A DNA stretch of 64,000 nt, from positions 5,952,001 through 6,016,000 of the forward strand of contig CM000151.3 in NCBI GenBank assembly GCA_000004695.1, in the 5' to 3' direction. Below the pieces are notes generated by a model that was given only the letters and a program-made list of their open reading frames with translations, made no database searches and had not been told where the DNA came from. This document shows, one piece after another, positions 3,481-38,857 of the stretch (position 1 is the first letter of the stretch; the number at the start of each line of letters is the position of its first letter). Source of the DNA: Dictyostelium discoideum. Lineage: Eukaryota. The position numbers and the translations under genes were made by a program.

Positions 3481-4944
3481 TTTTAAATCATTAATTATGT
3501 TTTTTTTATAATAATTTAATTTAGATAAGCCTCACCAAAAAAAACACACATAAAATATATATACATATATTTTAGTATTTTAGTACAAACAACAAAAAAA
3601 AAAAAAAAACCAAAAAAGAAAAAATAAAATAATAAATACATCATCCCCCTGATTAAAATATTTACTTTGATTTTTTTTTTTTTTTCTTCCACTTAAATAT
3701 TTACTGTAATATATCACAAAAAAAAATAAAAAAAAAAAATCAGGATTATATATTTGAAGTTTAATTTAATCATGTAAGATATTTTTTTTTTTTTCTTTTT
3801 TTTTTTCTTTTAAATTTTATTTTTTTTCTTGTATTTTTTTTTTTTTTGGGTTTCCTTTTTTTAAACAAAAAAAAAATCCCAACCTCTATAAATTTTATTT
3901 TTCATCATCCAAATAAATATTAAGTAAAACCTACAAATAACAATTCAGTGATTAAAAAAAATAATAAAATAATAAAATAATAAAATAATAAAATAATAAA
4001 ATAATAATAAATAAAAAATAAAAAATAAAAAATATCTAAATAAAATCATTGAATTCACACACACACACACACACACCAACCACATAATTGAATTTTAAAA
4101 TTGTTTTACACATCACACTATTTTAATTAGATAGAGATAATTAGGTACAGTTTGATTTATATGATACATGTACCTCCTACTAATACTAATATCGCTAATC
4201 AATAACTAAAATAATAATCACACATAAGCACGGATCGTTTATATCATTTGATTAAAAAAAAAAAAAAAAAACAATTATTATTGTGGTACTTCCTTAATTT
4301 TTTTTTTTAATTTTTAATTTTTAATTTTTTTTTTTTTTTTTATTATTTTTTTATTTGTCTTGTAAAAATAATTAACAATTGTGATTGTTTTTAAAACCAA
4401 TCAAAATAAAAATTAAAATAAAAATTAAAATAAAATCAACCCCACTATCACACAAAATCTCAATTAATCAAACATTTTAAATAGAATAAAAACAAATTGC
4501 AAATAAATTTTTTTATTTTTTTATTTTTTTTTATTTTTTTTTCCTAACTCTCAATATTATCTTTCTCGGGTGTGTTTTTAATATTGTTATTAATTTCTTT
4601 TACCATTTTTTTTTAAAATAAAAAACTTATTTTTTTTATTTTTTTTTTTATTTTTTTATTTTTTAATCAAAAATAATTTATTTATTTATTCATCATCCAA
4701 AAAAAAAAAAAAAAAAACATAACCAAAATATTTATTAGTATTTGTAATAAACTATATTTTAAATATTATTGTACATTAAAAAAAAAACCAAAAATTAATA
4801 TTGTAATTTATTTATTAAAATGAACATTATTTTTTAAAAAATAAAAATAAAATTAAAAATTAAAAATAAAAAGAAAACTTCATATCTCCAACTTTCCATC
4901 CCCCTCCCTTTGTAAATAAAAATAAAAATAAAATAAAAAAAAAA

Positions 4945-7304: not shown

Positions 7305-7790
7305 TTTGAATCCATACATAATTATATACTTATATAAATTAATTCATATTTATAATGTAACACAATTAAAACTATAATTAACTAAAACATTTATTGTAGA
7401 TTTAAATATTTAAAATAAAATTAAAAAAAAAAAAAAAAAAAAAATATATGTATATTAAGTAAAATGTTTATTTTTAAAAAAAACTAGATGTGAATAAAAA
7501 TTTTAAAATATTCAATATTGAGATTTTAAAAAACATAAAATGATATTGATAAATCAACTTTTTTAAGTTGGTTTAAAATTATATTACCAAAATTTGAATT
7601 TTTTTTTTTTTTTTTTTTACAGAGATTTTTTTTTTTTTTTGATTTTGTAGATCTATTAATTTGGAATTTTTTTTTATTTCCCATAAACATGGTATCAATT
7701 AACCAAATTATTAAAGGGTTGGTTAAATTTTTATTTTTTTTGTGGATTGTATGGTGTTAAAAAATGTGAACAATAAATAAATAAATCAAT
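7305..7790. repeat. Copy 1 (~480 bp, ~80% identity between copies) of an unclassified dispersed/segmental repeat family (R).
   Basis: It shares ccatacataattatat..., atatattaagtaaaa(a)tgtttattt, ttttaagttg..., ccaaaatt(t/g)gaattttttt, gattttgtag..tatttcccataaacat..attaaagg(g/a)ttggtt..tttttgtgga.. with 7955-8130 and 12790-13280. Confidence 0.6.
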
Positions 7791-7821
<31 letters not shown>

Positions 7822-7954
7822 GAGTTTTAACTATAAATTAATGGTGAATATGAATTTACATACTTTTGAATAGTTGTTGTACTGGTGATAATGGTGATGA
7901 TGATGGTTGATGAGATTGTTGTGGTTTAAATAAACTAGAAATTTTTTTTTTTAA

Positions 7955-8130
7955 ACCATACATAATTATATGCATATATAAAATAATTCAAAATTTATAA
8001 ATTTAACAAAATTAAAACTATAATTAATTAAACATTTATTGTATATTTAAAAAAAATTAAAAAAAATAAAAGATGAAAAATAAAAATATATTAAGTAAAA
8101 ATGATTATTTATTTATTTAAAAACAGAAAT
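7955..8130. repeat. Partial copy 2 of repeat family R.
   Basis: aaaccatacataattatatgcatatataaaataattcaaaatttataaatttaacaaaattaaaactataattaattaaacatttattgtatattt...atatattaagtaaaaatgattatttatttatttaaaaa matches the 5' part of 7305-7790. Confidence 0.55.
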
Positions 8131-8149
8131 TGATGGTTTAGTTGGTGCA

Positions 8150-8345
8150 ATTGAAGAATTATCAGATACTCAAATTAGAAAGATTTAATTCAACACCATA
8201 CATTAGAAATCAAAAATCAGGTTTAACAATTAACATTTCATCTGATGAAATGGGTTTGGATAATATGTAAAATTATTCAGCATACAGTTCAACTAAACAT
8301 GCAGTCAATGCAATTACATTGGATAAATTATATTTAAAGTTATTT
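8150..8345 (+). pseudogene. Decayed fragment of a short-chain dehydrogenase/reductase (SDR) gene.
   Basis: The translation contains GLTINISSDEMG followed by SAYSSTKHAVNAITLDKL. The second piece carries the SDR catalytic YxxxK motif (YSSTK). In-frame stops interrupt the reading frame and there is no start codon. Confidence 0.45.
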
Positions 8346-20512: not shown

Positions 20513-23500
20513 AATATAAAATTAAATTAATAGAAATGGTAAATGGATAAAACCAGAAGAATCAACAACAACAACTACAACTACAACAGCAACAACAAAT
20601 AAAAATGAAATTGAAAGTAATAAAACTTTAAATCCAAATGTTAAACCATTAGGAGCATTACCAAATAATTCAAAGATTGAATCAATGGATACATTTAAGA
20701 ATACAGTAGGATCAGTTGATTTAATGTCATTAGATGAAGAGATTCAAAGAAATAAGAAACAAAAAGGTGGTAATACTAAACAAGCAGTAGCAGATATTAG
20801 TTTCAATGCAAAACAATCTGATACTACATTGGATAAACTTAGAGAGAATGTTGAAAAGAAAGAGAGAGAGGAGTTATCAATGATTGAGCAACAAAAACAA
20901 CAAAATATAATACCAGAGAATAGAACAGCAACAGGTGGATATATTACAGCGGCAGGTACATCTAAATCGTGTATACACGAGGTACTATTGCCACCTGGCG
21001 AGGTTAATGACGACCCAAATCTATATAACCCACCAGAACCAATCAAACCAGCACGTACATATCCATTTAAATTGGATCCATTTCAAGCGACATCGATTGC
21101 ATGCATAGAGAGAAATGAGTCGGTTTTAGTATCAGCACATACATCAGCAGGTAAGACTGTGGTTGCAGAGTATTCCATCGCCACCGCATTGCGTGATGGT
21201 CAACGTGTTATCTATACATCACCCATTAAAGCATTGTCAAATCAAAAGTTTCGTGATCTTCAAGAGACCTTTCAAGATGTTGGTTTGATGACTGGTGATA
21301 TCACGATCAATGCAAATGCATCATGTTTGGTTATGACCACAGAGATTTTACGTTCAATGCTTTATCGTGGCTCTGAAACCATGAGAGAAGTTTCATGGGT
21401 AATTTTCGATGAGATTCATTATCTTCGTGATAAAGAGAGAGGTGTAGTTTGGGAGGAGACAATCATTCTCTTACCAGATTCAGTTAAATTTGTTTTCCTC
21501 TCTGCAACCATTCCAAATGCAAGAGAGTTTGCTGCATGGATTGCAAAGATTCATAAACAACCATGTCATGTTGTCTACACTGAATACCGTCCAATTCCAT
21601 TACAACATTATATTTTCCCATCTGGTGGTGATGGTTTACATTTGGTAGTCGATGAAAATGGTGTTTTCAGAGAAGAGAATTTCTTAAAATCATTATCAAA
21701 TCTACAACAACCAGAAATGGGAGGTCAAAGTGGTGCCTCGAGAAAGAGGGGTGGCGGCAATAAAGGTCCATCGGATTGTTATAAAATCGTAAAGATGATT
21801 ATGGAGAGAAATTATCAACCAGTTATTATTTTCAGTTTTTCAAAGAAAGAATGTGAAACCTATGCTTTACAAATGTCAAAATTGGATTTCAATAATGATG
21901 ATGAAAAGAATGCAGTGGAAACCATCTTTAATAATGCAATCGATTCCCTTTCTGAAAGTGATAAACAATTACCAGCAGTCATTAACATTTTACCCTTATT
22001 AAAACGTGGTATTGGTATACATCATGCTGGTCTTTTACCAATCCTAAAGGAGATCATTGAAATTCTCTTCCAATATGGTTATATCAAGGCATTGTTTGCA
22101 ACTGAAACTTTCTCCATTGGTTTGAATATGCCTGCTAAAACTGTAATTTTCACATCGGTTAGAAAGTTTGATGGTGAGGGTATGAGATGGATTAGTGGTG
22201 GTGAATACATTCAAATGAGTGGTAGAGCAGGTCGTAGAGGTCTCGATGAAAGAGGTATAGTAATTTTAATGGTTGATGAAAAGATGGAACCTGCCATTGC
22301 AAAGGGTATGGTAAAAGGTCAAGCAGATCGTTTAACAAGTAGTTTTTGGATTGGTTATAGTATGCTTTTGAATATGCTACGTGTCGAAGATATAGATCCA
22401 GAGAATTTATTAAAACGTTCATTCCATCAATATCAACAAGAATCATTCATACCACAATTGGTTGATAAATGTGATCAAATGGAACAAGAGAAAAAAGAGA
22501 TTATAATTCGTGATGAAACATCAGTTACAGAGTATTCCTCAATTAAAGCACAATTAGCTAAATTACGTGAAGCAATGCGTGATTTCATTAATCAACCAAC
22601 CTATGTTCAGCCATTCCTTACAGCTGGTAGAATCGTACGTATTAGAGAAGGTTCAACCGATTGGGGATATGGTGTAATTTTAAATTTCTCAAAGAGACCA
22701 ATTAAATCAAGTGGTAGTGGTGTCTCTGATAAAAGTTTTGAAGTTATTGCAGATATTCTATTGGAATGTGCAATCTCTTCAGATCCAACATCAAATGGTG
22801 GTTACATTGGTACACCAAAACCATGTGTCCCTGGCGAAGTAGGTGAAGGTCAAATCATACCAGTATCAATTAAACTTTTCGATGGTATCACCTCTGTTTG
22901 TCTTTACGTTAAAAAAGAACAACCAACACAAGAATTTAAAACTCATTTATTTAAAACCCTCAAAGAAACTGAAAATAGATTTAAAAAAGATGGTGGTATA
23001 CCATTGATCGATCCAATCGAGGATATGAAAATTAAAGATCCAAACTTTAAAAAGTTAATCAAGAAAATTGAAACCTTGGAAAGTAGATTCTCATCAACTG
23101 CTTGTTTCAATGATACAGATATCGAAGAACGTTGTAACCTTTTGGAGAAGAAGAATGAAATCACCAAAGAGATTAAACAATTACAAAAACAAATTAAAAG
23201 TGGTGATGAAGTCATTCTAAAGGATGACCTTCGTTCAATGAAACGTATTTTAACCCGTTTAGGTTATATAACAGACGATGGTGTCGTTGCCTTGAAAGGT
23301 CGTGTTGCCTGCGAAATTAGTGCAGGTGATGAATTGGTAATTAGTGAACTTTTATTCGCTGGTTTATTCAATGATTTATCAGTTGAACAATGTGTTGCCG
23401 TTTTCAGTTGTTTCGTATTCCAAAATGAAGGTTCCGCCAATAACGATGTCAATAATCCAAAAATAAAACCAGATTTGGTACCTTTATATCGTGTCATTAG

Positions 23501-23825
23501 AGATACCGCTTCAAAAGTTGTAACAGTATCTCAAGAATGTAAATTAACCTCAGTCGATGAGAAAACCTATTTGGCTTCTTTTAATCCAAACTTTATGGAT
23601 GTAACATTTGCTTGGGCAAGTGGCGCCTCTTTTGCTGATATCGTTAAAATGACCGATACCTTTGAAGGTAATCTCATTCGTGGTATTCGTAGATTAGATG
23701 AACTCATTAGACAAATGGTAATTGCTTCAAAATCAATTGGTAATACTGAATTAGAAGCTAAATTCTCTGAAGCAACCGTTAAAATTAAAAGAGATATTCC
23801 ATTTGCTGGTTCTTTATATTTATAG
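20320..23825 (+). CDS. mtr4: MTR4 (SKIV2L2/Dob1), the exosome-associated DExH-box RNA helicase. Exon 1 is ~20320..20414, the intron ~20415..20533, and exon 2 ~20534..23825.
   Basis: The sequence is near-colinear with the Mtr4 I remember from animals and yeast. Matching motifs: DPFQATSIACIERNESVLVSAHTSAGKTVVAEY, DEIH (FDEIHYLRD), SAT, QMSGRAGRRG, the arch/KOW region, and the C-terminal DSHCT ending ...FAGSLYL. The N-terminal exon encodes MEDDDLFSVFD, matching the Mtr4 N-terminal ELFSVFE. The track start at 20685 misses this exon. Confidence 0.95.
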
Positions 23826-24734: not shown

Positions 24735-25947
24735 AATAATAACCATTTTATTGTTATATTTTAAAATTCCTTAAAACAGATTAATTGAAATTTTTTATTT
24801 ACTACCCCTTCAATGACATTGTATATCATTTCTTAAAATTATTATTAAGTTGTGTTTCTGTTTAAGGTAATTCTCCCAATATTCCTTTAATTATAAAAAT
24901 AGGATTACTTGTAATTGGTGGGTAAAAAGATCTGTTACTAAACAAAGAACAACAACACCTATCACAATTAATATCGTTGTTATTAACTCTATAATCTTGT
25001 CTAAAATAATTTTTTAATAAATGGTATTGGGTACTATTATTAGTTTTTTTTTTTTTAAAAAAAATTCACCACACTATCAGATATCATTTCCTTTTTTTTT
25101 TATTTGATTTTTTTTTTATTTGTTTTTTTTATTTTAAAATAATTAAAATAATAAAAACTACACCTAAAACAAATTTACAAATTTTTTAATAATTTCACAC
25201 ATCCACACTTGAAAAATTAATTTTTAACATCAAAAAAAAAAAAAAAGAAAAATAAAAATAGTAAAATTATGTGATTACCTTTTTTTTTTATTATTATTAA
25301 ATTATTATTTTGTATTATTATTAATTTACATATAATTTGCAATAAAATAATAATTATTTGATAATCTTGATATTGTCATTAAAATATTATTTTTAAAAAA
25401 TTTTTTATTAAACTAAAAAAAGAAATTGTTGTAAAAAAGAAACACTAAACATAATATTTTTTAATTATCTTTAATATAAGATATTTTAAAACAATATGAT
25501 TTATATTTTATTTACAATGATTTTGATAATATAATATACATGTTAACTATACTTTAAATTAAAAAAAATATTAAAAAAATCAGTTTCATATGATTTTTTA
25601 AATATTCACCCATCATAAAAAATAAATTAATATCCCACGAAATAATTTTTTTTTAAATCATCCACTCCCTATTGAAATAAATAATGTTGAGTTGTTGAAT
25701 TTAGGTAATTTACAAAAAAATAAAAAAATAAAAAAAAAAGAAATAATTTTTTAATTATCCACGAACTTTGTTTTTAAAGGTAATATCTATGCGAACAAAG
25801 ACAATTCTATTTTTTATCAAACAAATAATTTCAAAAAAACAATATACTATACAATTAAAGATTTGATATTAAACTTTAAGTAGATCATACTAGGATTTTA
25901 TTATTTTTGTAATGTTAAATGAAATTAAAAATTGATGTTTAATTTAT

Positions 25948-26728
25948 TTAAATACTTTTGAGAGTGATAGTAAAACCGGATACATCATCTTGTACAATTT
26001 CACAGTTTGTTGGCCATCCTTCAGTTTTTCTGTATGATACGGTATTGTTTGATGGGGTGTATTTAAAATAAATACTTCCATTAGCAAAGACTTGACCAGG
26101 CCATTTTATTTCACGAATTGAAATTTGGCATACTATTTTAAACAAAAAAAAAAATTAATATTATTATTTAAGTTATTATTATTAATAATATTATTATTTT
26201 TAATATTGGAAGTATTTACCAATTTCAGAATCTGGTGGATTTAATTCTGGGATTTGAACACCAGAGTAATCTCCGCCACTAACAATTTCAACACCATTTA
26301 ATTGGTATGGAATAACAGTAAGTTTGAAATCGTTTGGATCTCTACCTTGTACATTGTGTTTAAATCTAATATCAACAGAGTATTTGAATTGAACATCAAT
26401 TCTGATTTAAAAATTATTTTTTAAAAAAAAAAAAAATTAATAAAAGGATTTTTGTGAATAACCCACAAATTATGAACTAAACTACATACGCTTGGACAAT
26501 ATCAACATTAGGTAATTTATCAGTAATATCTGGATATTCACCACCAAGGAATGTTTGCATTGTTCCATTTTTATCCCAAATATTAACTTTGCAGAATTTT
26601 CCAACCTTGAGAGATCTTAAAGCGCCAGCTTGGTTTCCGTATCTACTTCCATTTTGTAAAGACCATTTCTCACCTCCAAAGCTCTTTTCTTTAAAAATTA
26701 TACTCTCCTTATCACCAAGTGTAGACAT
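25948..26728 (-). CDS. Three-exon gene for a ~201-aa cytosolic lectin-like beta-sandwich protein. Exons: 26728..~26490, ~26401..26220, ~26132..25948.
   Basis: Exon 1 reads [55 protein letters not shown]... The two introns have GTATGT/GTAAAT donors and CAG/TAG acceptors, and both splices are in frame. Exon 3 reads ...[41 protein letters not shown]. There is no signal peptide. I could not assign a family. Confidence 0.6.
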
Positions 26729-26832
26729 TTTTAATTATTATTATAAATTTATACTATTGAAAATTTAATTTATACTTTTCTATTTTTTAATTATTATTAC
26801 TATTGAAAATTTAATTTATACTTTTCTATTTT

Positions 26833-26875
<43 letters not shown>

Positions 26876-26934
26876 AAAAATTATTATTATTATTTTTATT
26901 TTAATTTCAATTTTTTGGGTATTTAAATTGTGAC

Positions 26935-27125
26935 TACCAATGATGAGACAGTTGCCCCCCAAAAATGCTTCTGATTTTGTGTGTAAATTACAATAATAGC
27001 TTGGGGGTGAAATCAACAAATTTGTAATTTATAAAAATAGGTGATCAATGCAATATTACCCCCATTAAATAATGATTTTATGGGTTAATTACAAAAATAA
27101 CTTGGGGGTGACCAGTTTTTTTTAT
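26935..27125. promoter_or_regulatory. Repeated G-rich boxes (CTTGGGGGTGA ×2, GCCCCCCAAAA, TACCCCCATT) in the 5' region of the lectin-like gene.
   Basis: G/C strings are rare in this genome. They are clustered 200-400 bp upstream of the minus-strand ATG at 26728. Confidence 0.25.
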
Positions 27126-27429
27126 TTTTTTATAAAAACAAAATAAATAAATAAATAAATAAATAAATAAAATTATGTTATTTAAATAATGACATCCCAA
27201 ATTTATTTTTTTCGATGTGTACTATTTATGAATAATATTAATCAATCAATTTCAATTCATCCTTTTTTTTTTCTCTTCTTATTACTAATTAAAAATTTTG
27301 GTGGCTTAATTAATTAATTTATTAAATAAAAAAAACAATCATTTTAAAAAACTTTTTATAAAAAAATTATATATTTAGTTTTTGATCGGCAGACTTATTA
27401 TTTTTAACCTTAAAATAAGGTGTTTTCTG

Positions 27430-27469
<40 letters not shown>

Positions 27470-28032
27470 TTTTTTTTTTTGGTGTGAAAAAAAAATTATT
27501 TGAAATTTTAGAAAGTGATTGTTTTAGTGTGTGGATTTATAATTTTAAAAAGCTAAAATCACAGTTTTTAAGGTTTTTTTTTTTTTATTTTTTGAAAACT
27601 TAATTTAATTTTATCGGGTAGAATTTTTTTTTTTTTAAATTTCTTTTATTTTGTTTTTTTTTTTTGTATTATCCTTTAATTAATTTCAACATGCAAATCA
27701 TTTTTAGAAAAAAAAAAAATATCTTTTTTTTTTTTTTTTTTTTATATATATTTTTTTGAAGATCTTGGTTAAATTGAAAGTGTTTGTTTATAAAACTGTT
27801 TAAATTTAAAAAAATAAAAATGATAACAAAAAAAAAAATATTAATTGTGTTTTTTGTTTAATTGAAGGTGTATTATTTTTTTTATTTTTAAAATAAAATT
27901 TTTTTTTGAAAGTCTTTTTGGGTGAAAAAACAATTATCTGAAATTTTAAAAATTGATTGTTTTGGTTTGTGGATTTCTATTTCAAAAGTTAAAATCACAA
28001 GGTGTTTTAAAAAATATTGAGGTTACTTAGTT

Positions 28033-28071
<39 letters not shown>

Positions 28072-28929
28072 CTTCTACTTCTTTATAAATGTCTAAGTTT
28101 TAAAAACTTTAATTTTAACTTCATCTTTAATTTTATCATTTTTCATTTTTAATTTTATTTCGCATTTTCTATATTTATTGTAAATAATTTCTATGTTTTG
28201 GTATTTTCTTAAAGTCTTTTTTGGAGGAAGAGAAAAAAAAAAAAAAAATGAGGAAAAAAAAAAAAAATATCTATTTTATTTTATTTTATTTTTTTTTTTT
28301 ATTTTTTTATTTTTTTATTTTTTTATTTTTTTATTTTTTTTTATTCAAATTCTTCATTATGATAAATATCTCAGGGTTGCATTGTAAATATTCGAACCCT
28401 TTTTTTATTTTATTTTTTATTTTATTTTTTATTTTTTATTTTATATTTTTAATTTTATTTTATTTATTTTATTTTTTAATCCTAGTAGTTTTTTTTTTAT
28501 TGGATTAAATTATTTATTTTGTTATTTATCCTTGCGAATTACATTTTGGGTTATAATTTAAAAAAAATTGTGACATGTTACAATTTCAAATATAAATATT
28601 AAGTTTATCATATTATTGAATTATTTAATTTATTTTGGTGTTTCCCCAAATAATTGTTTCAAATTTTGTATAATTGTCCGATAGTTATAAACAAATTTAA
28701 AAAAAAAAAATCTAATAATAGATATATTTAATTATTATAATTTTTTTATTTCCTAATATTTATTTATTTATATATTTATTTTTTAATTATTTATTTTTCA
28801 TTGTTAATGGATTTAATAATTAGATAAATTAATTAAAAGGGGGTGGGGTTGTTGATTAATATAATTGGATAGTTGAATTTTGAGTATAGTTGGAAAGACG
28901 ATATTAATTAAAATTCAATTATCAATTGA

Positions 28930-29169
28930 TTTCTATGTTTATTTATGAACTGTAGGTGATTGAGGTGCGAAAGGGAAACAATTAGATTAACATTTTTCCA
29001 AAATTTCTGGACACATGTCGTATATGACACTTGGGGATTTTGCGCTATTAGCAATACATAATTTGAAACCATCTTAGCAAGTTTTTAGACATTTGGGATT
29101 GATAATTGAACAAAAAGCTCCGGAGGTTACAATTGATAATAATAATGCAATGAGATTTATTTTATTCAT
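28930..29169 (-). pseudogene. Pseudogene copy of the small secreted 8-Cys peptide family (copy I).
   Basis: It reads MNKINLIALLLSIVTSGAFCSIINPKCLKTC* with a premature stop. Its flanks are homologous to the other family copies. Confidence 0.5.
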
Positions 29170-29536
29170 TTTTATTTTTTTATTTTGTTTTATTTTTTTA
29201 TTTTTATTAAAAATTGAAAGATAGAAATTAGTATTTTAAATTATAAAAAAAAATAAAAAAAAAAATTTTAAATATATTTATATTAAAAAAAAAAAGAAAT
29301 TAAATTTTGAAAAAATAAGTTGGAAATTATTTTTTTTTACAATTTATTTGTTATTGCAATAATCCTAAATAATAACAAGGAAACGAAAAAAAAATTATAA
29401 TTCAAAATAAATAAAAGTGAGTTTTCAAAAAACTTTATTGTTGTAGTTTAGTTTAGTTAAGTTTAAGAATTCCATGTGTTTAATTCCACTCCATTTTCGA
29501 ATTTTTCTCTCCTATTCGGCTGAGTTTAATTTATCC

Positions 29537-29571
<35 letters not shown>

Positions 29572-29904
29572 TTAATAAAAACATAATAATTAATTTTTGC
29601 AACCTAATTATTTCAAGTAAAAAAATAAAAAGGTGAAATTTCTATTATTGGATTAATTATTTTTGAATTTAATAAAGTTTTCAGTTAACTATACAATTAA
29701 CTATTTAGTTTATTAATTATTATTAAACTAATTTTTTGATTAAATAATTTACTTATTTTATTAATGGATTTAATAATTAAATAAATAAATTAAAAGGGTT
29801 TTAGTTGGTTGTAATAAATTAGATAATTGGATATATTGAATTTTGAGTATAGTTGGAAAGACCATATTAATTAAAATTCTATTATCAATTGATTTCTTTG
29901 TTTA

Positions 29905-30135
29905 TTAATGGACTGCAGGTGATCGAGATGGGAGATCAACCATATGCAAGATACAGTTATATAAGCATGTACCTAATGCTTCTGAACAAACTTCGAGCGG
30001 TGCTGAGTCAAAACCGGTAACACAAAATAGGAAAGTATTTTTGCAATCTTTTTTACATTTGGTATTGAAAATTGAACAAAAAGCTCCAGAGGTGGCAATA
30101 GATAATAAAAGTACAATTAGAATTATTTTATTCAT
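29905..30135 (-). CDS. Small secreted cysteine-rich peptide (76 aa), family member II.
   Basis: It reads MNKIILIVLLLSIATSGAFC|SIFNTKCKKDCKNTFLFCVTGFDSAPLEVCSEALGTCLYNCILHMVDLPSRSPAVH. A signal peptide is followed by a mature domain with C-x6-C-x3-C spacing twice. Paralogs lie at 42199-42444 and 45672-45920. Confidence 0.6.
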   Translation of the reverse strand: MNKIILIVLLLSIATSGAFCSIFNTKCKKDCKNTFLFCVTGFDSAPLEVCSEALGTCLYNCILHMVDLPSRSPAVH

Positions 30136-30970
30136 TTTTATTATATTTTGTTTTTTTTATTATTATTAAAAATTTGAAAAATAGATATTGGTATAATATT
30201 TAAATTATAAAAGTAAATAAAATTTTAAAAAGTATTTATATTAAAAAAAAAAAAAGAAAATTTAATTTGAAAAAATAAAAAAAAAAATAGATATAGTTAT
30301 TAATTATTAAAAAAAAAAAATTTGAAAGTAAATGTGCACCCATCTTAAAACCAAAAGAGGATGACTACATCGATTTTTTATTCCATAATTGTTATTTGAA
30401 TATGACGACAATAATTTTAAGCACCTTTTGTAAATCAAAGAAAAAAATAAAAATAATTTTAAAAAGGTAACTTGCCAATACATAGATTTAATACCAATTT
30501 TTTTAAAATATTTGAGAAAAATATTTATAATTTATGAATTCCATTGGTTATTTTAAAATAAAAAAAGTAAAATAATCTATAGATTTTACAGATAATTTTT
30601 AAAACCATGTACAATTTAGTGTGTGGGTGAAAAAAATAAATTTAGATTTAACAAAAAAAAAAAAATTAAAAAAAAAAATAAATAAATAAATGAAAAAAAT
30701 AAAATAGGAACTGGTTTAAATTGTTAAAAGTCATAATGATAAAAAATGTCAACTTGTGAAATAACAAGTGGTAATTGTAGAATTTTCCATTGATTTTAGC
30801 AGTTGATGGTGCAATAATTATTCCAAATACTAATTTTATTCATTCATTTTTAATTTATTCCTTGAGAATTTAAGTTCTAATTCAAAAAAATAATTTATTT
30901 TTAATTTTATTTATTAATTGAGAATTTAAACTAACTACATTTATAGTTATATTTTAATTTTTTTAGTGGC

Positions 30971-31004
<34 letters not shown>

Positions 31005-31410
31005 TAATTATTTATTTTTTATTATTTATTTGTATTAATTTAATGAATTAATATTTTATTTATTCATTGACAAATTAAATAAATAAAATTACATTTAGAG
31101 TTATAATTTAATATTAATATTAAAATGTTTTTTTTTAAACTAATTTCAAGTGGGGTTAACTTTTTTTTTTTTTTCATTTTTTATATTTTATTTTTTAAGT
31201 TTATATGTTTCATGTAAAATCAAAAAGGGATTTTTTAACCCCTAATTTCACCCTTGAAAAAAACACTTAATAAATTTAATAATATTTGGCAATAAAAATA
31301 AATAAAATGTATTCTTTATTCATTAATTAATAATATTTATGAAGTGCAATATTTAATTATGTGCTTTTTAAAATTTTGAGGGAAAAAATTAGACAATTTT
31401 AAAAAACTAA
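30060..31410. repeat. Segmental duplication block (the 5' part of the Cys-peptide gene plus ~1.3 kb of its upstream region). It is almost identical to 38860-40190.
   Basis: Long colinear identity with only a few mismatches or indels, read by eye. More diverged versions lie at 42380-43160 plus 43700-44300, and at 45860-46600. Confidence 0.8.
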
Positions 31411-31915
31411 ACGCACTATGGACATGGTTTCAAAGTTGGAAAGTCCTAAAAAAAAAAAAAAAGCTTCAAATTCATTATGGATTCTATTGGATCATTATAC
31501 AAAACATTGTAAGATTTCCCAAAGAATTCATAAAAGTAATAATGTTTTCATTGGTTTCAATATTAATGAAAGATATTTTGGTATGATTGCACTGACGAAG
31601 AATGTAAAAAGAAAACACAACAAAAAAAAATTCAAATAAAACTAAATCAAAAAAAAACCATAAAACAATGGAATTCGATGAAGATTTTTTCAATTAAAAT
31701 TCTATAAAAATAAAAAACAAAATAAAAAAAATAAATTTTATAAAAAAAAAAAATGTTTGAAAATATAAAATCATTAATCTTCACAGCAGTTTCTTTATTA
31801 TTCTCTTTTTTTGTTATCATAGTGATTCAATTAAAATCTTGGTGAGGCAGTTTTGGAAACAATAGACGATTCATAAACCCCAAACTTCATTACAACAAGA
31901 ATCATTAAAATTACA

Positions 31916-32503
31916 ATGTACATGCAAACCATTATAAAACAATCGAAAAGTATCGATGAAGATTTGGTACAAGGAACTAAAAAATGGGAAGAAGCAAGAG
32001 AGTAGTATTCTTTAACTGGAAGTAGATTAGCTGCTGCCATTGGAATTGATCGATACACTTCACAACATGATATAAAATTAATATTGGCGAAAAAGAAAAC
32101 CCCATTCTTTAGTGACTACTGTAAAAAGGCAATGGGACATGGAAAACACCAAGAACCAAAAGCAAGAGAATTTTATTTTAATGAATTGGAGACTTCAATT
32201 ATCGAAAAGGGTATCTTTCCATTGCCAGGCGACAAAAGAATTGGATGTTCTCCTGATAGGGTAATTTACACAACAGTACCTGGTAAAGATGGAGTTTTAC
32301 AGCGTGAAGGAGTTATTGAAATTAAATGTCCACTATCTGCCACGAACTTCAGTGGCCTAAAGAATGGTAGAAAACCTGATGCCTTAGCTAATGCTCAGAA
32401 AATACCTCTAGATTACATTCCACAAATATTTGCAAACATGGCATGTACTGGGGCACAATGGTGTGATTATATATGTTGGGTTCCAGGTGGTATACTTTTG
32501 TAG
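31916..32503 (+). pseudogene. YqaJ-type viral recombinase / lambda-exonuclease-like (PD-(D/E)xK) nuclease domain gene. It is disrupted by an in-frame TAG at ~32003-32005 and truncated at its C-terminus.
   Basis: The translation reads MYMQTIIKQSKSIDEDLVQGTKKWEEARE*YSLTGSRLAAAIGIDRYTSQHDIKL...GHGKHQEPKAREFYFNELETSIIEKGIFPLPGDKRIGCSPDRVIY...DGVLQREGVIEIKCPLSATNF...IPLDYIPQIFANMACTGAQWCDYICWVPGG. This matches the YqaJ pattern: W..R.G.iTaS, then gasPDg, then ilEiKCP, then Y..QvQ.Q. The domain stops early at ...GGILL*. Confidence 0.65.
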
Positions 32504-32717
32504 AAGGGTATTCTTTGATACAAATGTATGGAAATTTATTTATTCGTTATCAAAATTATTTATAGATACACCTTTAAATGAAATACCTTTAAAGAATGAA
32601 AAAACATTAATAATAAATACATTACTCTTACAGAAACTTAAAGTTTTAAATCCACACCTAAATATTCATGTACGAACTAAATTATCAAAAAAAATAATAA
32701 AAAATAAAAAAAATAAT

Positions 32718-33120
32718 TTCTAATGGCTTATAATAATAATTCTTTTATTTTAAAATAATAAAAAATAGAAAAAGTTTTAAAAAAAAATAATAAAAAAAAA
32801 AATTCTAATGGCTTTTATAAAGATTATTTTAAAATTGAAAAAAATAAAAAAATTTAAATTTGTAAACTGATTAATGTTACACTATTAATGTCTTCGAAAT
32901 ATCTATTGAATTTTCTAAAGATATTTGAAGGTTTCAGAGAAACAGTTTTTTAGGAATAATTAATGATTTTTTCTAATGGTTTTTCTAATGATTTTCAGTA
33001 TAATGATTTTTAAGATAATAAAAAATTGATTTTTTTTTGGGGTTTTGGGGAAAAGATATTTATTGGAGAATATTTCCTAGTTTCTTTATAATCATTTTAC
33101 AAAAAAAAATTTTCTAACGG
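32718..33120. repeat. Array of five TTCTAA(T/C)GG motifs spaced 15-170 bp apart, with two ~100-bp tandem units at 32960-33200.
   Basis: The motifs lie at about 32718, 32803, 32971, 32983 and 33112. The two ~100-bp units share gg(g)tttt(a)gg(g/t)gaaaaga(t/a)atttatt(g/a)g(a/g)gaat. Confidence 0.4.
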
Positions 33121-33631
33121 TTTGATTATAATCATCATGGGGTTTAGGTGAAAAGAAATTTATTAGGGAATGTTTTGTTTTTCAATTCATTTTCAAAAAT
33201 ATATAAATAATGGTTAATGTAAATTTTTGTAAGGTACCAAGAGGAAAGAATGGAGAAAATGTTAAAGTATGTCTATTCATATAGTTAAAAAAAAATATAA
33301 ATTTATTAAATATAAATATAAATTAACATCATTTTTTTCTTATTTTTTTTATAGGTTCTTAATAATGATTATTTGACAATCATACAGTTTAAAATTAAAA
33401 AATTGTTTTAAACCATCACTTTTTTTGAACACATGAAAATAAATAAGAAATAAAAATAAAAAGATAAAAAAAGATTTTTTTTTTTTTTTTTATTTTATAA
33501 TTATTCTTGTCGTCAGTATTGTTACTATAATTAATCCCATGAGTTTTTTTTATTATTATTTTTAATTCTTTTATATTTGAGATGATTATTATTAATTAAA
33601 TGACTTTGAGTTTTTTTTTTTATTTTTCTAT

Positions 33632-33806
33632 GCCCAAAATTACCATATTAATTTCGGCAGCCATATTAATTTCAGCCTAAAATAGTTGGTCTGTGCATGC
33701 CAAAATAATATGGCTGCTGAAATTAATATGGTATTACTAGCAGACATAAGTCCCATGCCAAAACTATCATATTAATTTCAGCAGCCATATTAATTTTGGC
33801 ATGGGA
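33632..33806. repeat. Composite palindromic repeat. A ~40-bp unit (TGCC(C)AAAAyTAyCATATTAATTTCrGCAGCCATATTAATTT) occurs as direct, inverted, direct copies, and the second and third copies form a ~38-bp-arm hairpin.
   Basis: Unit A is 33632-33677, unit B (inverted) 33696-33733, unit C 33751-33806. B is the reverse complement of C with a ~35-nt loop. It lies immediately upstream of the A32-like ATPase fragment. Confidence 0.7.
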
Positions 33807-34057
33807 CATTCCATCGATTTAAATTTTTCTAAAGTTTTTTTATTTTTTTATTTAATTAATTATTTATTTTTTTATCTTTGTAAAGCAATGACTGATTTTG
33901 ATATTAGTGATTCAGAAGAAAAAGATATTAGAAAAAATGATGTAAAAGTAAGAAAAAAAATTGAAAAAAAAATTAACACCAATGGTGCACCTGATGACCA
34001 ATTTGTCATTACATAAAAACAAAAATGAATAAATGGTGGCAACAATGTGTCCCTTAA

Positions 34058-34828
34058 AAGTATATTTTTGAAGAGTGGTCGCCACATATAATTCAAAAAA
34101 TCTTTGATAGAAATAAGGCCATTATTGATGCTGGTTTACAAAAATATACCGATACTAGAATTCTCTTTATTTTAGATGATATTATTGGTGAAGATAGTTT
34201 TAAAAACGATGAAGTTTTAAAAAATGTTTTTATTTTGGGTCGTCATTATCATGTTGGATTTATGATATTAACACAGTATGCTTATGCTCTTCATCCATTG
34301 GTTAGAGGTAACACTGATTATGTTTTAACCACACTTCAATCACAAAATCGTCAAAGGGAAGCCATTGCAAAGGATTATGCTGATATTGTTGATAGAAATG
34401 CATTTTATGAACTTTTGGATAAAAATACTACCGATAATCATCTATTGGTTATCGATTTATCAAAGCCAACCATTAATGTCGATGATGTTTTCTCTCGTTT
34501 CAAAGCTGATAATCCAGGGCCATTTAGGGTGGGATCAGAAAAATGCTGGGATAAACATGAAAAACAAATTCAAATGATATATAATAAAGTTAGATTGGAA
34601 ATGGGTTGGTATTCAGAAGAAGATCAAGAGATAAGAAAGAAAAAATTTAAAAAAAAACTTGAAAAACATGAAAAAAAAGAAAAAGAAGTTGAAGTAAATA
34701 TTGAAAAACTTCCAAAATCAATAGAGAAAAAAAATGAAAGTAATGAAGAAGACAATGAAAAAAATCAAATAAATTTTTTAATTTTAATTTTTTTTTTTTT
34801 TTTTTTTTTTATAATCTTTTATTGATTT
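34058..34828 (+). pseudogene. C-terminal half of an A32-like (FtsK/HerA superfamily) DNA-packaging ATPase, the type found in NCLDVs, Polintons/Mavericks and virophages. The Walker A half is missing, so this is a fragment.
   Basis: The open frame reads ...RILFILDDIIGEDSF (Walker B hhhhDD), then ...VFILGRHYHVGFMILTQYAYALHPLVRGNTDYVLTT. The GRH, Q and R.N motif order and spacing match vaccinia A32 FLLIFDDVGD...FGRHLNTSIILLCQTY...RANITHFCSF. An E/K-rich tail follows. The track ORF 34235..34825 starts at an internal TTG. Confidence 0.6.
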
Positions 34829-36525
34829 CTTTAATGTTTGTTAAAAGTTTTTCTTGAGTTCCAAAAAATGTGAGATAAAATGGGACCCCAAAATTTGGAT
34901 CACCTCTAAATATAGAACTAACACCATTCCCAATGAGAAGTGTTAAACATACACCCATCGATAGCTGAAGGCTCGATGATAAAAGTAAATCATTAGTTGA
35001 TGTTTGATTGATTTTATATCGATAATCTCTCAATAAATCATTTTCCATTATAACATGTAAACTACTATCACCTTTCTTTGGTTCTAAAACATATTTATCG
35101 AATGATTCATCGAGTTTATGGCCAACATATGACCCAATTAATGCTTGTGCTAATCCATGAGAAATTGCTGTAATTACTTCATTAGCCATTTTTTTTTCTA
35201 AAGACCTGTTTTAATATTTGTTCCAATGGATGGTGGTTTTTCTATGTAAATTAGAATATGTTGTCCATGGGCTAACATTACTTCATATTGATTTTCCAAT
35301 GAATGATTGTTGTCGTGAATTTTTTTAACGCTTCTAACTATTAATGCATCACCCGATAAAGTGTGTAATTCATTTTCTCTAATCCACGATTTTGCTGTGG
35401 GATCTAAAGCAATTGTTTTTTTAACATGTGATTCAATTTTATCATGATGATGGTCGTCTGATATTGAAATGAATTGACTATAAATAATTCCAGCTGCTAT
35501 TCCTCCTAATAAATAATAGTTCATTTTTTTATTTCTTTTTATTTAAAATATCCTTTAGTTTTTCTTCATTTAATTGAATTTGAGATTTTATTTCTTCATC
35601 GGTCTCTTTTCTTTTTTGGGATCTTTCTCTGCTATTCACTTCATTGGTCATCCTAATGGTTTCAGCAATAGCAGCCACCGTTCTTAAAATAACTGGTGTA
35701 CGACCAATATCATACTTTATAACCAACTCTTGGAATGTATCTTTAAAAAAATAAAACCTTAATTGGTTTTGTTTTATTTTGTGTAATAATCTTTATTTTT
35801 TTATTTTTTTTATTTATTTTTTTTTTATTTTTTTTATTTATTCTTATTTTTGCAATGATCTTTATTTTTTATTATTTTCTTTTTATTTTTCTTCTTTTTT
35901 TGTTGGGATATCTGTTCTTTTTCGTGTACCAGGAAAATTAAGATCCAAAATATTGATGGTAAAGAAATCTTGAATATTTTTATCTTGAACTAAATGATCC
36001 TCACCAATATAGTAGTTTAATACATCTCTGAATTGAAAAGGAGGTAAGGAACCATCTTCGTTAACTTTGAGTGATTGATAAAGTATTGATGCAGTTTTAT
36101 ACATTTCAAGTCTTTCTACTACTTCCTTGATACATTCTGCTGTACAATTTTTCCCAAATTCAAATTCCAATAAGTTATCATATTGAAAAAGGTTTTCAGT
36201 AAAATTTGGGTGGTGGTGGTTACGGTTCATTTTTTTTTCTCTGTGTCAAAAATGAAAATTATTTGTGTGAATTAAAAATAAAAATAAAAACAAAAATATA
36301 AAAAAAAAAAAATAAAAAAAAAAAATTGAAAAAAAAGGTCAACCCATGAGGAGCCATATTCCCGAAAACAAAGTATACCCCATTCCCATTAAAATGATTA
36401 ACTCTGGGCCAGACACCATTGGCGTTTTTTCTAATGAACATAATATCGTTAAACCATTGCGTGTTTGGAGTTATAGAATTGTCGTTGATAATACCAACAT
36501 AGTGATGTGAGTTACAGGAATTCAC
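34809..36525 (-). other. Run of five short minus-strand ORFs (126, 108, 65, 115 and 88 aa). Two are in the same frame, separated by a single TAG. They are likely remnants of one or more decayed genes in the island.
   Basis: ORFs 35198..35524 and 34809..35189 are joined as ...NIKTGL*KKMANEVITAIS... The other ORFs shift frame. There are two hydrophobic segments. I recognised no domain. Confidence 0.25.
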
Positions 36526-36845
36526 AAAAAAAAAAGGATCAATAAAATAATTTTTAATAAAATTTTCATTTGGAGATAGTTATTTATATGAAGTATAATA
36601 TAATAAAAATAAAAAAATAAAAAAAATTTATACAAAAATAAAATGGTGAGAAAAATATTAATGTTTTTGAGTAAATTAGGTAAAAATTAAAAAATAATTT
36701 TTTTTATTTATTATTTTTTTTTTTTAATTTACAAATTTATTTATTATTTATTTATAATTTCTCACTTAAAAAATTAAGTAGTCATTGTTATTATTATTTT
36801 TTTTATTTTTTTTTTATTTTTATTTATTATTTTTTTTATTTTTTT

Positions 36846-38095
36846 TTGTTTTTATTTATTTTTTTTTTTATTTTTTTTTTGCTGTATATCGGTAAAGCAT
36901 CCCATCAAGAAGGAAGGGGTTTGTACAACAGAGGTTACACAGATCTAACTGGTGGCTCAAGGAGATGGGGGAATCCAAATTCAGACCCACCAGAAATGGC
37001 AAATGCTGAAGTTTTAATGTATTATAGAGGTTTTGATGGTCCAGTTGCTGGTCATGCTGAGTGGTGGTTCCTTTCAGTATTTGGGTGTCCAGAAAATAGT
37101 TTCAACGAGGGTGGTTTAAGGACATCTGAACACAGTTATGGCGCAGGTCAATGGAATTTTTTCCATGCAAATGCTCCCCCAGTTAATGTTCGTCAATATA
37201 TTATAAATCAAGATCCATCCCCCGGTTTTTTTTTAGATTTCAAAACTATCCATCTGCTCCAAGTATTATAAGAAGAATTGTTGAATGTGAAACTGAACGA
37301 TTACACGCTGAAGGTCTTTCAGTTAAAGTTCCTGGTCTTCAAAATCAAGTGGTACATTTTCAAAATCAAGTGGTAAATCTTCAAAATGCAAACGAACTAT
37401 TGACAAACTATAATGCTTATTTGGCTGCAGCTCTTCTTAATGCTATGCCTCAGATTCCAAATCTAGATGGTTTTCTACCAGTATACGGTCCTGGGTTGGA
37501 AGTTTCAAGTGAAGCTATTCGTAATTGGAATGAAGCAAGAAAAAATGGCGGTGGTGGTATTGGTGGTGGTATCGGTGGCGGTGGTATTGGTGGTATTGGT
37601 GGTATCGGTGGGGTAGATGATGGTAAAAAGGGTGATGGTAAAAGAGGTTCAGGTGGTGCGGATGGTGCACATGATGGTTGGTTAAAATCTGGCTGTATTT
37701 GTCCAGAAACTCCTCCTTGTCCAGTAGTAATTCCATGTCCAGAGCCAGTGGTTTGTAATATAGCAAAAATTCAAATTCAATTGAATTCAACCATAAAAAG
37801 TTTGGATGAATGCAAAAAACAAAAGGACCAAACCAATGATAACCTCAACGTCTGCAAGTCCCATAAAGATGAGACACAAGATTGGCTCACCGACTGTCAA
37901 AAAGAATATGTTAAACAAACAAGTCATTCATCCAAAGATGATACTCTAATTTCTCTCAGAAACTGCCAAGCCGAATACCAAAAAGAAACATTCAAAAAAG
38001 ATAAGCTCTGCCGTGGTTTGTCCAAACATATCATTGGTTATCTCGATTTCTGTGAAGATAAGGTAGAAAAGCTCAAACTCGCTAATTGTGAATAG
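36846..38095 (+). CDS. Hypothetical ~415-aa protein with a Gly-rich (GGIGG)n segment, a CxxPxxPPCP Cys/Pro cluster and a Cys-containing coiled-coil tail. It is intact only if a +1 shift occurs in a T9 homopolymer at ~37224-37232.
   Basis: ORF 36846..37271 ends 75 bp before ORF 37349..38095, which is in the +1 frame. With T10 instead of T9, ...DPSPGFF joins FRFQNYPSAPSIIRRIVECETERLHAEG...VHFQNQVVNLQNANELL... continuously. This could be a sequencing error, a pseudogene or a slippage site. Confidence 0.45.
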
Positions 38096-38518
38096 TTTTC
38101 TCATTTTTAAAAAAAAAAAAAAACAAAAAAAAAAAAATCATATAATGGTTTCCTTTATGAAATCAATAAAAAAATTCTTTAAATAAAATTTTTAATCTTA
38201 TTTTAAAAAAATTCTTTTAATGAAATCCATTATTTTCATTTTTTATAATTTTATTGAACTTTATTGAAAATAATTAGATATTGTTATTTCCAATGGTTTT
38301 AGATTGATAACGGTATAGATGTGACCATTAAATAGAAAACTATTAAAAATTGAGCCAAAGAAAAATCAACGATTTTTAATGGTTGTTTAAAGATTTCCTA
38401 TAGAAAATTTAAAATGATTTTTTTAAAAATATTTCAAAACCAATGTCATAAAATAAAAATTCTCAATTACTAAATATAAACATGTATAGATCATTAGGTT
38501 TATTTTTAAAAAAAAACG

Positions 38519-38773
38519 ATGGGTGCCCGTCAAAAAAAAGAAATTGAAGCAGATCCTGAAAGGGTAAAATTAATAAAAATTAAAAAAACACAAAAAAGAT
38601 TGGCCGAACAAGAAGAAAGAAGAAGGTTGATGCAAGAAGAAAGTGAAAGAAGACGATTGCAAAGACTTAGAGAAAAACAAGAGCCAATTAGAACCTTTGC
38701 AACTGCACAAGAAGCTCAACGATATATACCCAAACCTGGTAACTTTGCACGTAAAAGAGGTGCTAGAAATTAA
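38519..38773 (+). CDS. Small (84 aa) Lys/Arg/Glu-rich protein.
   Basis: MGARQKKEIEADPERVKLIKIKKTQKRLAEQEERRRLMQEESERRRLQRLREKQEPIRTFATAQEAQRYIPKPGNFARKRGARN. Its codon usage is less AT-biased than the surrounding DNA. I did not recognise the family. Confidence 0.35.
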   Translation: MGARQKKEIEADPERVKLIKIKKTQKRLAEQEERRRLMQEESERRRLQRLREKQEPIRTFATAQEAQRYIPKPGNFARKRGARN

Positions 38774-38857
38774 AAAAGAAAAAAGAAAAATAATTGAAAG
38801 AAATAAAAAAAAAAAAATTAAAAATTAAAAAAAAAATAAACTACATCTCTTATATAA

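Follow-up and report, generated by a model that had tools for sequence, protein, structure and literature searches.

A YqaJ-family nuclease pseudogene in a probable endogenous viral fragment of Dictyostelium discoideum

We examined a stretch of 64,000 nucleotides of Dictyostelium discoideum DNA (contig CM000151.3, positions 5,952,001 to 6,016,000; hereafter the window, in whose coordinates positions are given), which contains a nuclease-like open reading frame (ORF) on the + strand at 31916..32503. This feature is very probably a virus-derived YqaJ nuclease pseudogene that lies in a captured viral fragment and drifts without selection. It is an ordinary pseudogene in an endogenous viral element, and its state reflects the general decay of an old insert, not one recent hit. 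An earlier note, made from the sequence alone, had proposed a recent inactivation. This was contradicted by at least two disabling lesions, by near-neutral private changes, and by the broken state of the other recognisable genes of the island.

The nuclease frame and its lesions

The N-terminal and core part of the gene runs from the ATG at 31916 to a TAG at 32501-32503 and gives a 195-residue translation with one internal stop. With this stop masked, the translation matched the Pfam YqaJ profile PF09588 over profile positions 1-150 of 150 (E=1.3e-35, 123.3 bits). The curated gathering cut-off of this profile is 22 bits, and the match is far beyond chance. The motifs appeared in the order W..R..(stop)..TGS, GCSPD, IEIKCP, and YIPQ...G.QW; all those listed in the earlier note were present, in the canonical order that it described. 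The PD-(D/E)XK residues D114, E135, and K137 were in register in the window frame, and their columns were invariant in 33/33 relatives. The frame was 93% identical to an intact paralogous ORF of D. cf. discoideum (L002:10185-10952).

Sequence searches against the PDB matched the Laribacter alkaline exonuclease LHK-Exo (3syy, E=3e-11) and Mimivirus R354 (E=1.2e-5), with lambda exonuclease as a marginal match. The fold was checked on the AlphaFold2 model of an intact relative from D. cf. discoideum, P0009, which is 46% identical to the reconstructed translation of the window gene (alignment A5). The model reached a pLDDT of 87.7 and a pTM of 0.86, and Foldseek retrieved with it 3syy (E=5e-12, TM 0.75), lambda exonuclease 3slp (E=1.5e-10), and R354 (E=4.6e-9). 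Because the PF09588 match, the PDB sequence matches, and the fold matches of P0009 agree, the window gene is established as one of the PD-(D/E)XK lambda-exonuclease type, with the fold predicted on a relative. The family assignment of the earlier note, which had suggested the PF09588 search, was thus confirmed by the full-profile match, and the PD-(D/E)XK fold was found with P0009. By contrast, an uninterrupted ORF spanning the full fold is lacking in the window copy, which carries a TAG at codon 30, a 2-bp deletion at codon 192, and G115R. The window copy is a pseudogene member of the PF09588 family, not a working one.

Lesions were called codon by codon against the intact 255-codon paralog L002:10185-10952. 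The in-frame TAG at codon 30 (32003..32005, + strand) was also present in another D. discoideum assembly (L005) and in the Logan contig P0002. The corresponding codon is AAG in L002 and AAA in L003 and L001, so that Lys was converted to a stop by one A-to-T change. The earlier note had placed the TAG exactly at a conserved Gly. This held only in part, since the close paralogs all carry Lys (AAG/AAA), as does the whole dictyostelid clade, and this column of the 34-sequence alignment contains G in only 12/33 and K in 5/33 sequences.

The second disabling lesion is a 2-bp deletion in codon 192 at about 32489 (32486..32491, + strand), where GGTGAGGT of the intact L002:10185-10952 has become GGT--GGT; another D. 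discoideum paralog, L007, retains GGTGAGGT at this site. The resulting change of frame gives rise to the terminal TAG at 32501-32503. Translation and tblastx revealed the out-of-frame C-terminal continuation of the nuclease (VYFCRRVFFDTNVWKF...RTKLSKK..., ~75 codons) at 32487..32723 on the + strand. This translation resembles the C-termini of L002, of P0009, and of the Acytostelium copy (tblastx), and its counterpart in the AlphaFold2 model of P0009 is the final core beta-strand together with the helices at the C-terminus. The domain had been described as ending early. The ORF does stop early, because the deletion shifts the frame, whereas the Pfam domain is complete and the C-terminal part is still readable at 32487-32723.

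Beside the catalytic Asp, the codon at 32258..32260 (+ strand) is AGG (Arg) in place of the GGG or GGA of the paralogs. This change (G115R) turns SPDG into SPDR in a column that holds Gly in 32/33 aligned relatives. Further private missense changes of the window copy are P44R, L51I, E72G, I80K, A211S, and S213L. The private changes of the window lineage comprised 6 nonsynonymous and 2 synonymous substitutions over about 600 versus 158 sites, a ratio close to the neutral expectation. In the 160 bp upstream of the nuclease, deletions of 1 bp, 16 bp, and 5 bp were found (DNA alignment A1). The TAG had been reported as the single interruption of the gene; the deletion in codon 192, G115R, and the three upstream indels correct that description.

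The viral island and related loci

The nuclease lies in an endogenous viral island of 7.45 kb within a host tandem array (31411..38860). In blastn and tblastx comparisons, similarity to dictyostelid viral-like loci (L001-L004, L006, L007) was limited to about 31384-38886. The junctions of the island are sharp, with 2-4 bp of microhomology, AA on the left (31410/31411) and AGAG on the right (about 38860). The island is bracketed exactly by two direct repeats of 1.3 kb on the + strand, a left copy at 30088..31410 and a right copy at 38857..40181, which are 97.9% identical to each other and share an identical final 248 nt. Other units of the host array are only 60-89% alike; further units lie near 42397 and 45873, and the array period is roughly 3.5 kb. 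The repeat pair could be a long duplication made at the insertion, and it would then serve as a clock for its age. The possibility that the repeats are long terminal repeats or part of the element was considered and rejected, as they are units of the host tandem array.

The other recognisable genes of the island were also damaged. At its left end lies the 3' remnant of an archaeo-eukaryotic primase-polymerase (prim-pol) gene (31411..31697, + strand), which is frameshifted and cut by the junction. Its ORF at 31418-31639 resembles the C-terminus of the prim-pol ORFs L003:9107-9940 and L001:7765-8952. The prim-pol homologs scored under the cut-off, with E=1.5e-4 for L004:8617-9738 against Pfam PPL4 and E=0.016 for L006:9725-11050 against AEP_C962R. 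Between this remnant and the nuclease, a small upstream ORF (MFENIKSLIF..., MFENIKSLIFSAVSLLFSF; 31753..31870, + strand) is broken by the 1-bp, 16-bp, and 5-bp deletions. It is intact as the 73-codon L002:10001-10222, has a hydrophobic N-terminus, and is kept in the copies of the D. discoideum group; it was not detected in the L004 and Acytostelium copies. Automatic gene models join this ORF to the nuclease.

An A32-like genome-packaging ATPase pseudogene is located 1.2 kb downstream of the nuclease (33888..34825, + strand). Three-frame translation showed internal stops and the loss of Walker A, which reads GKRRSGKS in the intact paralog P0014 (339 aa); the Pox_A32 match of the remnant was under the cut-off (E=0.0021). 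The AX4 model DDB_G0275725 (P0015, 'hypothetical protein') splices round the damage and lacks Walker A, and it is probably a pseudogene annotated as a gene. Farther downstream, three short ORFs on the - strand (126, 108, and 65 aa; 34809..35726) matched Acytostelium L006:4991-5622 in tblastx. A Pfam search of the remaining ORFs of the island, including these three, gave no matches. Every recognisable gene of the island is damaged, and the nuclease is therefore not a special case.

A 544-bp segment (36335..36878) is inverted relative to L003 and L001, as judged from blastn orientations, and the inversion splits a signal-peptide ORF that is intact as L003:4358-5050. Members of this signal-peptide family were found at window 36846-37271, L003:4358-5050 and 7710-8345, and L001:57-1433 and 4317-5954; the N-terminal half of the window member lies within the inverted segment. 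The family shares the motif G(V/I)Y(F/V)VF ... YIGK(A/S), reminiscent of GIY-YIG nucleases, and had no Pfam match.

Close paralogs of the nuclease were found by database search in D. discoideum strains, D. cf. discoideum, and D. dimigraforme, and L002:10185-10952 of D. cf. discoideum is an uninterrupted nuclease ORF. The lesions differ from copy to copy: codon 69 of L003 is a TAG, L001 has lost single base pairs at two sites, and L002 carries a helicase-ATPase chimera. In this chimera (L002:12333-13730), one reading frame begins with the N-terminal part and Walker A of a D5-type helicase and continues as the last third of the A32 ATPase, which indicates deletion or recombination between viral genes during or after integration. 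Between distant nuclease copies, Ka/Ks was 0.12-0.18 at a Ks of about 0.4. Such low ratios suggest that the copies diverged as working genes, presumably in the virus, before they were integrated separately, and that each afterwards followed its own path of decay.

The gene order dNK(-), prim-pol(+), YqaJ(+) is shared by L001, L002, L004, and Acytostelium L006. The last is the A. subglobosum scaffold DF837621.1 (25,853 bp), in which an A32 ATPase gene lies two genes from the YqaJ block; its product exceeded the Pox_A32 cut-off (E=7.9e-10). That this viral block, with an A32 ATPase nearby, is kept in other dictyostelid loci supports the proposal of the earlier note that the nuclease arrived with a foreign island. 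L003 matched DUF5906, a domain of SF3 helicases (E=5.8e-11), and the paralogous loci also include a VLTF3-like ORF under the cut-off (E=1e-4). The nuclease is physically linked to viral hallmarks, with the A32 remnant in the window and with A32 and YqaJ on one Acytostelium scaffold, and we infer that the donor was viral rather than a transposon.

We also searched for more distant relatives. An exhaustive HMMER scan of 1.84 billion representatives at E<=1e-30 returned, besides the query, one protein each from Acytostelium, D. cf. discoideum, and EukProt. The next-best matches included a D. purpureum fragment, followed by anonymous metagenomic proteins at <=43% identity. In the EukProt organism, the gene numbers gene9343/gene9344 suggest that the ATPase and nuclease genes are adjacent. 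In word-indexed protein searches, all matches came from dictyostelids, EukProt, Logan, and JGI, with no named virus among them. The source viral lineage appears to be confined to social amoebae.

Two of the related loci deserve description. L004 is the D. cf. discoideum contig JBTAPH010000006.1 (57,978 bp), a small stand-alone contig in a Mb-scale assembly, and may represent either a recent integration or a genome that is episomal or viral. The part that was read (L004:1-14587) is dense in apparently intact ORFs, including dNK, prim-pol, a 250-aa YqaJ protein (P0009), and a VLTF3-like protein among others, with proteins only about 45% identical to the window family. L007 is the last 11 kb of a 4.87-Mb contig of D. 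discoideum GCA_054859385.1; it carries dNK, prim-pol, and YqaJ and is 93.5% identical to the window copy. No protein counterpart of L007 from AX4 or GCA_054883475.1 was among the database matches, which hints at copy-number differences between strains.

The surroundings of the island are host DNA. The composition of the window is that of D. discoideum nuclear DNA, with a GC content of 15-32% and poly-Asn/Gln tracts in ORFs. Both sides of the island carry host genes, including an Mtr4-type helicase gene (20685-23825), a cyclin gene (48211-49128), and FNIP-repeat genes. TAA terminates 13/15 long ORFs in the window. A tRNA scan found no tRNAs, and bacterial promoter and terminator scans are uninformative for eukaryotic DNA. 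Around the island, two repeated genes of the host array were seen at 40457-41365, 44761-45069, 29074-29169, and 29905-30135. One encodes a P-loop (GSSGCGKST) protein with weak GTPase/ABC matches, the other a small Cys-rich secreted peptide (MNKI.LI.LLLSI.TSGAFCSI...); both are apparently fast-evolving tandem families.

Competing explanations and proposed history

The reality of the TAG was considered together with the ways in which it might leave the gene functional. L005, which belongs to the independent D. discoideum assembly GCA_054883475.1 and is 99.77% identical to window 25001-42506, is identical to the window across 830 bp spanning both the TAG and the 2-bp deletion. The stop and the frameshifted end are both found again in the Logan read assembly P0002, whose gene caller read both TAGs as Gln. 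Because the window, L005, and the Logan contig agree, the TAG is no sequencing error, which settles a doubt raised in the earlier note. The NCBI model P0004 instead excises the stop as a GT..AG 'intron' at 32002-32025. Introns of Dictyostelium have a mean length of about 150 nt; the proposed intron has 24 nt, far under the intron sizes of this organism, and its removal would delete T34 and S36, the near-invariant residues of the TGS motif. For these two reasons the intron of P0004 is regarded as an annotation artefact. The frameshift at 32489 persists regardless, and we consider it highly unlikely that the TAG is an assembly or sequencing error, or intronic, in a functional gene. That the TAG is decoded as Gln through stop reassignment or programmed read-through, as the calling of P0002 with Q at both TAGs would imply, has a negligible probability. 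This is Dictyostelium nuclear DNA with the standard code, the long conserved host ORFs of the window contain no in-frame TAG, the paralogs have Lys and not Gln at codon 30, and past the second TAG only 'KGIL' precedes a TGA, with no conserved C-terminus.

Automatic models at these loci bridge the lesions. The NCBI models P0004, P0001, P0003, and P0005 and the Logan protein P0002 span stops or frameshifts by invented micro-introns or by reading TAG as Gln, and databases therefore contain chimeric 'proteins' of the YqaJ family. P0007, from another D. discoideum strain, was considered as an allele of the same locus and rejected; it represents a different locus at a contig end.

The proposal that an otherwise intact island gene was recently knocked out by a single amber mutation draws on an otherwise open core frame at 31916-32503 with a very good YqaJ score, on a TAG that is one substitution from AAG, and on a divergence of only about 10% between the window copy and an intact paralog. 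We judge it distinctly unlikely, as the gene has a second disabling lesion, G115R, and three upstream indels, and its neighbours in the island are all broken. Moreover, the lesions are common to strains 0.23% apart over 17.5 kb, and the flanking repeats are 2.1% diverged. The ORF at 32084-32503 (139 aa) is open and holds D114, E135, and K137, so a truncated product starting at the internal Met73 (32132) might have been co-opted by the host. Such a product would lack the helices at the N-terminus and, at the other end of the fold, the final core strand and the C-terminal helices, and it would carry G115R; the private changes are near the neutral ratio, and no AX4 protein model for it was among the database matches. 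The probability of this co-option is accordingly put very low. Somewhat less improbable, although still unlikely, is that the multi-copy family is a eukaryotic transposon or a Polinton-like self-mobilising element with a YqaJ nuclease. YqaJ domains occur in some eukaryotic mobile elements, and the genomes of several Dictyostelium species and strains each contain many copies. By contrast, no inverted repeats of at least 150 bp were found around the island, and neither integrase, transposase, nor PolB was detected. In addition, the copies are different sub-fragments with differing breakpoints and rearrangements, and their markers are an A32 ATPase, a VLTF3-like protein, a D5-type SF3 helicase, and an archaeo-eukaryotic primase.

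Several observations weigh against a decayed gene of viral origin, the explanation that we prefer. The L002 ORF is intact, and some family copies might thus still work in certain strains; private substitutions are few (6 + 2); and the AX4 annotation treats the ATPase remnant as a gene (P0015). The viral markers were mostly under curated cut-offs, neither Pfam nor PDB sequence searches identified a capsid gene at any of the loci, and a scan of IMG/VR viral contigs with the nuclease P0009 and an ATPase alignment returned no relatives. A candidate for the double-jelly-roll major capsid protein, L006:3316-4566, likewise gave no Pfam or PDB sequence matches, and its C-terminal motif resembling capsids of nucleocytoplasmic large DNA viruses was recognised by eye only. 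With the capsid unrecognised, the viral nature therefore rests on the ATPase, helicase, primase, and VLTF3-like markers.

With a viral origin as the preferred explanation, the following history is proposed. In the donor virus, the YqaJ gene would have sat in a replication block of the order dNK(-), prim-pol(+), YqaJ(+), with the A32 packaging ATPase gene nearby. By analogy with its family, the viral protein was probably a Mg2+-dependent exonuclease that resects double-stranded DNA ends in the 5'-to-3' direction. It may have processed DNA ends for strand annealing, recombination-dependent replication, or genome maturation, in a manner comparable to phage Exo/RecE; this role is suggested by knowledge of the family and by the position in the replication gene block. 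A 7.45-kb piece of viral DNA would then have been captured into a tandem gene array of D. discoideum, presumably by microhomology-mediated end joining, and the capture would have truncated the prim-pol gene at the junction. After the insertion, the piece would have drifted without selection. The AAG-to-TAG change is predicted to halt translation from the ATG at 31916 after 29 residues, ahead of all catalytic residues, and the 2-bp deletion would put the last core strand and the C-terminal helices out of frame. The SPDG glycine would have changed to Arg during this decay. Because of the TAG, the deletion, and the Gly-to-Arg change, the locus is, as judged from its sequence, inert today, a molecular fossil that is presumably not expressed.

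Comparison with known systems and significance

The window gene shares with lambda exonuclease and LHK-Exo (PDB 1avq, 3syy) the family PF09588, the D...E-x-K motif, and, as seen on P0009, the predicted fold. Unlike these enzymes, the dictyostelid protein is longer by a helical extension of about 50 residues at its C-terminus, and the window copy is a pseudogene. Phage homologs, which are only 23-31% identical to the dictyostelid protein, are annotated as exonucleases beside RecT/ERF annealases. The term 'recombination module' used in the earlier note is loosely apt at best: unlike in phage Red-alpha-type systems, no annealase partner was recognised in the dictyostelid loci. Among the Nucleocytoviricota, the YqaJ-like recombinase forms NCVOG1192 (PMC3493329). 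Mimivirus R354 (PDB 5yet/5yeu) is likewise a stand-alone viral PD-(D/E)XK nuclease in the context of a large eukaryotic DNA virus, although it has about 390 aa and an added domain, whereas the window gene has its nearest relatives exclusively among dictyostelid copies.

A parallel in gene content was found with mriyaviruses, which the searched text of PMC11253617 describes as 35-45 kb relatives of giant viruses, including Yaravirus. Their small gene set, according to the same text, comprises an A32 ATPase, VLTF3, RuvC, an SF3 helicase with or without AEP, an HUH endonuclease, and a PDDEXK nuclease, which is gene 2 of Yaravirus. The dictyostelid loci contain the same combination, in part as weak matches or by eye. 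L006:16408-16941 has HUH-like motifs (FLLTVN / HSHAVIE / Y..K) with a sub-threshold match to Gemini_AL1 (E=0.048), and RuvC/A22-like motifs (ISIDPG...VESQ) were noted by eye only at L006:17455-18027. The dictyostelid elements differ in that they also carry dNK, which is not mentioned in the searched text of PMC11253617. The mriyavirus gene list further includes a major capsid protein, for which the dictyostelid loci gave a motif resemblance by eye only, and it has neither PolB nor RNA polymerase. The likeness concerns gene content. In the Yaravirus paper, gene 28, among the few non-ORFan genes of that virus, has its best match in Acytostelium. Thus, the dictyostelid gene set resembles the mriyavirus core, which we take as a lead, not as demonstrated membership.

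The elements also resemble the endogenous giant-virus fragments of amoebal and algal genomes such as that of Acanthamoeba (PMC5203793), which are likewise fragmentary, rearranged, multi-copy inserts in a protist nuclear genome and contain pseudogenised hallmark genes. For D. discoideum, PMC5203793 reported mainly FNIP-repeat genes, one Mimivirus/Megavirus-related hypothetical gene, and one chlorovirus-like gene. Unlike those finds, the present family is of the YqaJ/A32 type, and its donor has no close sequenced virus. A description of these Dictyostelium elements was not found in literature searches, which by itself does not prove that they are unpublished.

The pseudogene itself is of minor interest, as one more decayed viral gene in a eukaryotic genome, and its analysis corrects gene models that rely on an implausible 24-nt intron or a recoded TAG. 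The element family, including the 58-kb contig of D. cf. discoideum, is more interesting than the pseudogene. Endogenous viral fragments of one family, which come from a lineage without a close sequenced virus, are present in the model organism D. discoideum and in its relatives. We suggest, tentatively, that the window feature is a relic of an undescribed lineage of small nucleocytovirus-like, possibly mriyavirus-like, double-stranded DNA viruses that infects or formerly infected social amoebae. It is likewise possible, and put forward with equal reserve, that this lineage left many independent fragments in D. discoideum, D. cf. discoideum, D. dimigraforme, D. purpureum, and Acytostelium. To our knowledge, no Dictyostelium virus has been isolated so far. 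If this proposal is true, the elements would be a first point of access, for those who work on Dictyostelium, to a natural virus of social amoebae; virologists would in turn be able to assign small relatives of giant viruses to a host and would have a fossil record of them.

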